From: Escherichia coli
GTDB taxonomy: Bacteria > Pseudomonadota > Gammaproteobacteria > Enterobacterales > Enterobacteriaceae
DNA length: 536 nt
Strand: one strand, 5' to 3'
Assembly: GCF_003334335.1 (NCBI RefSeq)
Contig: NZ_QOWQ01000173.1
Shown here: one piece after another, positions 70-509 of the stretch
How positions within the stretch are numbered: the first letter of the stretch is position 1
How the letters are laid out: every line of letters begins with the position of its first letter
Translations under genes and position numbers: made by a program
The notes under the pieces: model-generated
The model's input: only the letters and a program-made list of their open reading frames with translations
The model's database searches: none
What the model was told of the DNA's origin: nothing

Positions 70-509
70 ACTTTGCCCTCAGACTGGCGCGTGAGATGGG
101 AAGACCCGACTGGCGCGCCATGCTTGCCGGGATGACATCCACCGAATATGCCGACTGGCACCGTTTTTACCGCACGCATTATTTTCAGGATACCCAGCTG
201 GATATGCATTTTTCCGGGCTGACGTACGCTGTACTCAGCCTGTTTTTTTGCGATCCGGATATGCATCCCTCTGATTTCAGTCTGCTTGTCCCCCGGCATG
301 AGGAAGAGCAGGTGGAGAGGCCGGATGAGGACAAAATGCTGATGCAGAAAGCGGCAGGACTTGCCGGAGGCGTCCGGTTCGGTGGGGACGGAGGGCGCGA
401 TATTTTATCGTCTGCGGATGTGGCGGATGTCATGGTGGATGATGCCGCATTAATGATGGCTTCAGCGGGGATTCCGGGAGGTGTGAGATATGTCCCAGCC
501 GGTTGGTGA
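1..509 (+). CDS. GT: Tail assembly chaperone G-T fusion made by -1 frameshift (equivalent to join 1..51,51..509), 5' partial
   Basis: After the slip at 45-51 the reading frame continues as ...DDDFSAGK/VFDGELNFALRLAREMGRPDWRAMLAGMTSTEYADWHRFY... to TGA at 507-509. The ATG at 96 has no usable Shine-Dalgarno (only GTGAG immediately abutting it), and the frame is open upstream to base 36. This fits T being made only as a fusion, as in lambda. Confidence 0.78.
45..51 (+). other. -1 programmed ribosomal frameshift slippery heptamer G_GGA_AAG (X_XXY_YYZ) joining G to T
   Basis: GGGAAAG at 45-51 is phased so the zero-frame codons are GGA (46-48) and AAG (49-51), the same heptamer and phasing as the lambda G/GT recoding site. 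The -1 frame has three consecutive stops (27-29, 30-32, 33-35) just upstream, then is open from 36 through 509. The zero frame stops 16 nt downstream, at 67-69. Confidence 0.8.
216..249 (+). terminator. Candidate intrinsic terminator-like hairpin plus U7 tract inside the T coding region (low confidence)
   Basis: GGCTGA (217-222) pairs with TCAGCC (235-240). After a bulged C223, GTAC (224-227) pairs with GTAC (231-234) around a 3-nt loop (228-230). Two nt later comes TTTTTTT (243-249). The same bases encode ...GLTYAVLSLFF..., so the structure may be incidental. Confidence 0.2.
476..481 (+). promoter_or_regulatory. Shine-Dalgarno sequence (GGGAGG) for the tape measure gene
   Basis: GGGAGG at 476-481 lies 8 nt upstream of ATG 490-492, which is good spacing. 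It is embedded in the 3' end of the GT coding sequence. Confidence 0.6.

Follow-up and report, generated by a model that had tools for sequence, protein, structure and literature searches.

Probable coding origin of a direct repeat and a palindrome downstream of the G/G-T slip site in a lambdoid prophage of Escherichia coli

The window, which is the whole stretch of 536 nucleotides of E. coli DNA that was analysed, comes from a lambdoid prophage and represents its frameshift region for the tail assembly chaperone G/G-T. Its sequence shares 99.8% identity with Escherichia phage PhiR12_1. At 100% identity it matches prophage DNA of several E. coli chromosomes, where PGAP labels the genes as G (tail assembly chaperone), T (tail assembly protein) and tape measure protein. 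Phage lambda aligns to the window DNA with 76.7% identity, from the end of G through the whole of T to the start of H. Of 5426 complete E. coli genomes, 2359 carry related DNA. The gene order is G, T in the -1 frame and then the tape measure gene H, and the homologous records carry the labels G, T and H.

All the features described here are located on the plus strand. The -1 slip heptamer G GGA AAG is placed near the end of G, at positions 45-51. Frame 1 reads F-S-A-G-K-S-S-T-A-S and terminates at the TGA stop codon of G (67-69, from the translation of 1-69), and the -1 frame is open from position 45. The heptamer GGGAAAG fits the pattern X XXY YYZ in the G frame, with the TGA 15 nt further on. 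At the aligned position lambda has its known slip site, and phi80, N15 and LLS have a labelled slippery sequence. The T segment of the G-T fusion extends in the -1 frame from 45 to 509, with its stop codon at 507-509. This assignment derives from the translation, from the PGAP and GenBank labels and from two family searches: the T product matches TIGR01715 (phage_lam_T) with 212 bits (cut-off 77, E = 1.4e-63), as well as the PHROG tail families phrog_32165 and phrog_39. The ATG start codon of H is at position 490 and is preceded by GGAG at 477-480. The end of T and the start of H overlap by 20 nt, and such tight coupling is usual in this operon.

The annotation of T differs between records. 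In several GenBank records T is a separate CDS that starts from an internal ATG, without a G-T frameshift join. In PhiR12_1 the annotated start is the Met of A-M-L-A-G-M (position 120 of the window), and the T proteins annotated from an internal ATG lack the L-A-R-E...D-W-R block. In E. coli strain 1579 (NZ_CP103718.1, 2109431-2110677) a transposase of the IS200C family is inserted inside T and splits the gene in two, in a prophage that is otherwise 99.8% identical.

The -1 frameshift of lambda G/G-T is the subject of Levin, Hendrix & Casjens (1993) and Xu, Hendrix & Duda (2004, 2013, 2014), as cited in the review of Atkins et al. 2016 (PMC5009743). The same review gives a gpG to gpG-T ratio of 30:1 and describes it as crucial for tail assembly. 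Frameshifting at GGGAAAG amounts to ~4% and responds to the thiolation of tRNA-Lys (Maynard et al. 2012, PMC3296357). The production of the G-T fusion protein at a low percentage was shown for lambda itself (PMC3296357 and PMC5009743). The window has the same gene order as lambda and the identical heptamer GGGAAAG at the same place. The first 85 residues of the T domain, counted from the slip site, are 84.7% identical between the two, compared with 76.7% for the DNA. A literature search found no paper describing a downstream element or structure for lambda G-T.

The slip heptamer varies among the related cassettes, being GGGAAAG, AAAAAAG or GGAAAAG. The aligned heptamer is GGCAAAG in one IMG/VR locus and GGCAAAA in six, and neither fits X XXY YYZ; judged by these heptamers, such loci may have their slip site elsewhere or may rely on A-site slippage alone. 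In mEp460, Fels-1 and Gifsy-1 (record positions 151-163) the 0-frame stop codon follows 3 nt after the heptamer (GGAAAAG nCC TGA), whereas in lambda-type cassettes it follows after 15 nt.

Downstream of the slip site, the original prediction had pointed to a 10-nt direct repeat and a GC-rich palindrome, and both are present as described. The 10-mer GACTGGCGCG occurs at 82-91 and again at 108-117, in different codon phases. In the T frame, copy 1 reads aGA CTG GCG CGt and encodes R-L-A-R of the L-A-R-E motif, and copy 2 reads GAC TGG CGC Gcc and encodes D-W-R-A. The octamer GGCGCGCC at 112-119 (tgG CGC GCC, encoding W-R-A) is indeed self-complementary. A partial third copy, CCGACTGGC, is found at 151-159 in the codon phase of copy 2 (gCC GAC TGG Cac, A-D-W-H). 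It was rejected as a member of a true repeat family, being the second D-W dipeptide of the T domain and not a DNA element.

The GACTGGCGCG repeat does not exceed what chance would produce. Of dinucleotide-preserving shuffles of the 536 nt, 17.5% have an exact direct repeat of 10 nt or longer at some position, so the rough chance of 10% given earlier was about right. The share is 32% in synonymous recodings of the window, in which the proteins were kept and the codons were drawn from the usage of these genes. Copies separated by at most 50 nt are found in 3% of the dinucleotide shuffles and in 5% of the synonymous recodings. Another exact 10-mer, GGATATGCAT, is also repeated in the window (200-209 and 257-266). 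Both of its copies are in one codon phase and encode L-D-M-H and P-D-M-H.

The origin of the repeat was followed in two sets of homologues. The first is composed of 22 GenBank phages, spanning lambda, Stx phages, 434, phi80, N15, HK225, mEp213, mEp237, mEp460, Fels-1 and Gifsy-1, together with one Klebsiella phage and one Enterobacter phage. The second comprises 240 IMG/VR loci, found with T queries of the N15, Fels-1 and Klebsiella types; a scan of viral contigs with the window's own T protein returned loci of 99-100% identity only, useless for covariation. From the slip site on, the two sets align gap-free and yield 102 distinct sequences of 96 nt. Essentially all homologues contain the block (K/R/N/Q)-L-A-R-E-(M/F)-x-R-x-D-W-R-x-M-L, where conservation of the T domain is highest. 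Among the 102 distinct homologues, nearly all have L-A-R-E (one exception, L-A-R-D) and nearly all have D-W-R (one exception, N-W-R).

Each copy of the repeat is one of these two conserved protein motifs, and the codon phase differs between the copies. The repeat core CTGGCGCG is L-A-R, written as CTG GCG CGn, in the first copy and D-W-R-A, written as gaC TGG CGC Gcc, in the second. The palindrome is W-R-A in common codons. The full 10-mer, which needs the AGA Arg codon at 81-83, occurs in 10 of the 102 distinct sequences, and GGCGCGCC in 53 of them. The window is, in this respect, a prophage variant: lambda has AAA (Lys) in place of AGA at 81-83 and CGT in place of CGC at 114-116, reads GGCGTGCC at the position of the palindrome, shares just 7 nt of the repeat (ACTGGCG) and contains neither the full 10-mer repeat nor the palindrome.

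The repeat and the palindrome are therefore likely to be incidental by-products of the coding of conserved T-domain motifs. They would stem from the use of common GC-rich codons for the most highly conserved T-domain block, (K/R)-L-A-R-E-(M/F)-G-R-P-D-W-R-A-M-L. In such codons, CTG-GCG-CG (L-A-R) and C-TGG-CGC-G (D-W-R-A) give one octamer, one base out of phase, and the AGA Arg codon at 81-83 lengthens the match to 10 nt in this lineage. Near self-complementarity of the common core GGCGCG, together with the CC-A that comes after copy 2, also allows the motifs to pair with each other, in a predicted GC-rich hairpin at 85-120. The hairpin is mostly a consequence of the protein sequence and is placed too far from the slip site for a classical stimulator, and frameshifting at GGGAAAG would be expected at a low intrinsic level, from the heptamer alone. 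On the other hand, Levin, Hendrix and Casjens reportedly observed in 1993 some effect of the sequence 3' of the lambda heptamer on frameshift efficiency, which counts against a mere by-product.

The hairpin predicted with ViennaRNA in the mRNA occupies positions 85-120, with pairs 85-92/113-120, 94-95/110-111 and 97-100/105-108 and a loop at 101-104. The pairing of GGCGCG (86-91) with CGCGCC (114-119) and its extension by U85-A120, both previously proposed, are recovered. To these 7 bp the folding adds U92-G113, 94-95/110-111 and 97-100/105-108, which results in a hairpin of 14 bp with about -23.4 kcal/mol when folded alone. Whatever the context folded, between 71 nt and the whole window, most of its pairs have a probability of ~1.0, the closing pair 85-120 being less certain. 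The hairpin starts 33 nt after the heptamer at 45-51, close to the distance of about 30 nt first reported and outside the range of 5-9 nt, and the doubt expressed from the outset about a stimulatory role at such spacing is well placed. In the loop, position 101 differs by a single synonymous base: the window has GGA (Gly), and PhiR12_1 and the commonest IMG/VR variant (70 loci) have GGG.

The pairing depends on the protein sequence. Resampling the synonymous codons of a fixed T protein leaves about 11.4 of the 14 hairpin pairs in place, and ~17 of 22 in the full predicted structure, which includes the outer helix discussed below. In most clades the native hairpin pairs are not significantly above the resampled ones; p is 0.18 for the largest clade and 0.025 for that of the window. 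The residue that follows D-W-R governs the basal stem, of which 7.8 of 8 pairs form with Ala (GCC) and 4.3 of 8 with Arg (CGG), and no compensation for the change to D-W-R-R was seen in the 5' arm CTG GCG among the 102 distinct homologues. The hairpin is thermodynamically stable and is mostly dictated by the protein. A lack of conservation of the repeat or pairing among homologues, named in the original prediction as a refuting outcome, is largely what is seen, given the 10 and 53 occurrences among 102 sequences and the fall of the stem from 7.8 to 4.3 of 8 pairs. We infer that the hairpin has no effect on frameshifting.

A conserved structure is absent across the family. RNAalifold on the 102 distinct sequences gives -1.4 kcal/mol and contains neither the hairpin nor the outer helix. 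Two covariation measures that resist phylogenetic inflation were applied to the same 102 sequences: the pairs changed on both sides number 7 against 6.0 expected (172 of 500 shuffles reach this value), and the further pair types 22 against 20.5 expected (113 of 500 shuffles). A covariation that had looked strong on 18 sequences was gone once the alignment had grown to 102. The synonymous-codon identity among nine clade representatives is 0.606 in 54-129 versus 0.607 in 132-264, and a second regional comparison gives 0.695 versus 0.633 (p = 0.11). At the level of single codons, those with a third base in a predicted stem have a synonymous identity of 0.77 versus 0.63 for the rest (Mann-Whitney p = 0.013), and the native position ranks 4 of 67 when the mask of stem codons is shifted circularly.

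The fold of 52-130 has -36.8 kcal/mol, the lowest absolute minimum free energy in the homologous locus of 1.66 kb, with z = -3.8 against dinucleotide shuffles and z = -2.3 to -2.6 against protein-preserving recodings, values that count against a mere by-product. A sliding scan of the 1.66-kb locus with the protein-preserving null gives z = -2.6 next to the slip site, -3.5 at 186-273 and -2.6 in part of H. The region next to the slip site is not a unique outlier, because 186-273 and part of H reach equal or lower values. An Rfam search of the window with E up to 10 gave a best score of 18.8 bits against a gathering score of 50, and such sub-threshold matches are chance matches. A scan of the window for promoters and terminators detected nothing. 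The segment 186-275, between the GGATATGCAT copies, folds with -32.5 kcal/mol and z = -3.5, the strongest in the locus under the protein-preserving null. It contains the stem GGGCUGA...UCAGCCU followed by seven U, which is terminator-like, and the terminator scan makes no call there.

Apart from the hairpin, folding indicates a possible outer helix, with the 5' arm at 59-66, 7 nt after the heptamer, and the 3' arm at 122-129, which can enclose the hairpin 85-120. Two points extend the earlier description: the repeat is the image of two conserved protein motifs, and an outer helix is possible at the classical spacing of 7 nt. The alternative that survives best is a lineage-specific modulator of frameshifting. 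In phages of the lambda, N15 and phi80 types, positions 59-129 would fold into the outer helix and its enclosed hairpin, and, with the heptamer in the P and A sites, this fold would withstand the helicase of the ribosome, thereby tuning the gpG to gpG-T ratio. Even so, the direct repeat would be incidental. At 7 nt, the spacer is within the 5-9 nt quoted for stimulators of -1 frameshifting in PMC5009743. The probability of the outer helix is 0.58-0.99 in local contexts and 0.91 if just the RNA 3' of position 58 folds, as with a ribosome on the slip site, but drops to 0.02 when the whole window is folded. The same hairpin and outer helix are predicted in lambda, with 22 of 22 pairs.

Further signals come from the MLAG clades, in which the T domain reads M-L-A-G-M (lambda, Stx, N15, phi80 and Klebsiella types). 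All these clades form 7-8 of the 8 outer-helix pairs against ~5 expected from the protein, with per-clade p values of 0.005 to 0.09, although the clades share ancestry and are not independent. Pair 60-128, which links the first codon position of Gly/Ser with the third position of Ala, is G-C in 21 and A-U in 54 of 75 distinct MLAG sequences, with no exception; however, a single double change on the tree suffices for this covariation, and 21 of the same 75 sequences have a G-G mismatch at pair 63-125. RNAalifold recovers the outer helix independently on 18 sequences, in which the pair and pair-type counts are borderline (reached by 8 and 5 of 500 shuffles), but the covariation signal vanishes on 102. 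Synonymous conservation is in weak excess at the stem codons, with no significant excess over the region (0.606 versus 0.607; p = 0.11). Non-MLAG clades, among them Fels-1, Gifsy-1 and mEp460, share this type of frameshift and lack the structure. As the structure was derived from one of the sequences tested, the tests lean in its favour. The published view, as given in PMC5009743, is that no stimulator is involved. The outer-helix signals in MLAG phages amount to weak hints in predicted folds, and a modulator of this kind appears unlikely. The fuller claim, that a conserved bipartite structure of 71 nt sets the gpG to gpG-T ratio in phages of the lambda, N15 and phi80 types, contrary to that published view, is more doubtful again. 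If true, a structure at 59-129 that tunes the frameshift would revise the heptamer-alone view of a widespread phage frameshift, and would offer a handle for manipulating a gpG to gpG-T ratio that is critical for tail assembly.

The hairpin might instead have another role in the mRNA, such as slowing the ribosome after the G stop codon, protecting the late transcript from nucleases or affecting how the T domain folds during translation. It is very stable and forms in every folding context, and a ribosome terminating at 67-69 would, from its footprint geometry, have its entry channel close to position 85. Nevertheless, its conservation does not exceed what the protein imposes and comparable or stronger structures are predicted elsewhere in the same genes, which makes such roles very unlikely.

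A role of the repeat or palindrome as DNA, be it a protein-binding site, a substrate for recombination or slippage, or a restriction-related motif, has next to no likelihood and was rejected because both are lineage-specific variants of codon choice that lambda lacks: the exact 10-mer repeat 26 bp apart and the 8-bp palindrome are there, but the repeat is at chance level (17.5% to 32%), lies inside a coding region with its copies in different codon phases, follows codon choice among the homologues as the palindrome does (10 and 53 of 102), is accompanied by no promoter-like or terminator-like site in the scan, and would by deletion between its copies remove 26 bp and destroy the T frame. The palindrome GGCGCGCC is the recognition sequence of AscI.

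Among known systems, the 3' stem-loop stimulators of bacterial -1 frameshifting in E. coli dnaX and in transposases of the IS3 family share with the window a stable GC-rich helix downstream of an X XXY YYZ heptamer, and the spacer would be 7 nt if the outer helix forms. Both dnaX and IS elements frameshift at much higher rates than lambda G-T. In contrast to these stimulators, the hairpin of the window lies 33 nt downstream, the outer helix depends on the folding context and the covariation is not robust. The lambda G-T shift is of a few percent and is described as independent of a stimulator (PMC3296357 and PMC5009743). The category that fits best is that of incidental repeats and hairpins generated by peptide motifs in GC-rich codons, from which the window differs in nothing material: the peptides and phases of the two copies are different, the pairing follows the amino acids and there is no regional synonymous excess.

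The original prediction was correct in its observation, and its cautious interpretation is supported; the finding is an ordinary one. The surrounding locus is a textbook lambda G-T frameshift, to which the repeat and the palindrome probably add nothing functional, and they matter little for its biology. Their value is that of a caution: exact repeats that are out of phase can result when conserved peptide motifs are encoded by GC-rich codons, and so can very stable predicted hairpins that resemble regulatory RNA.
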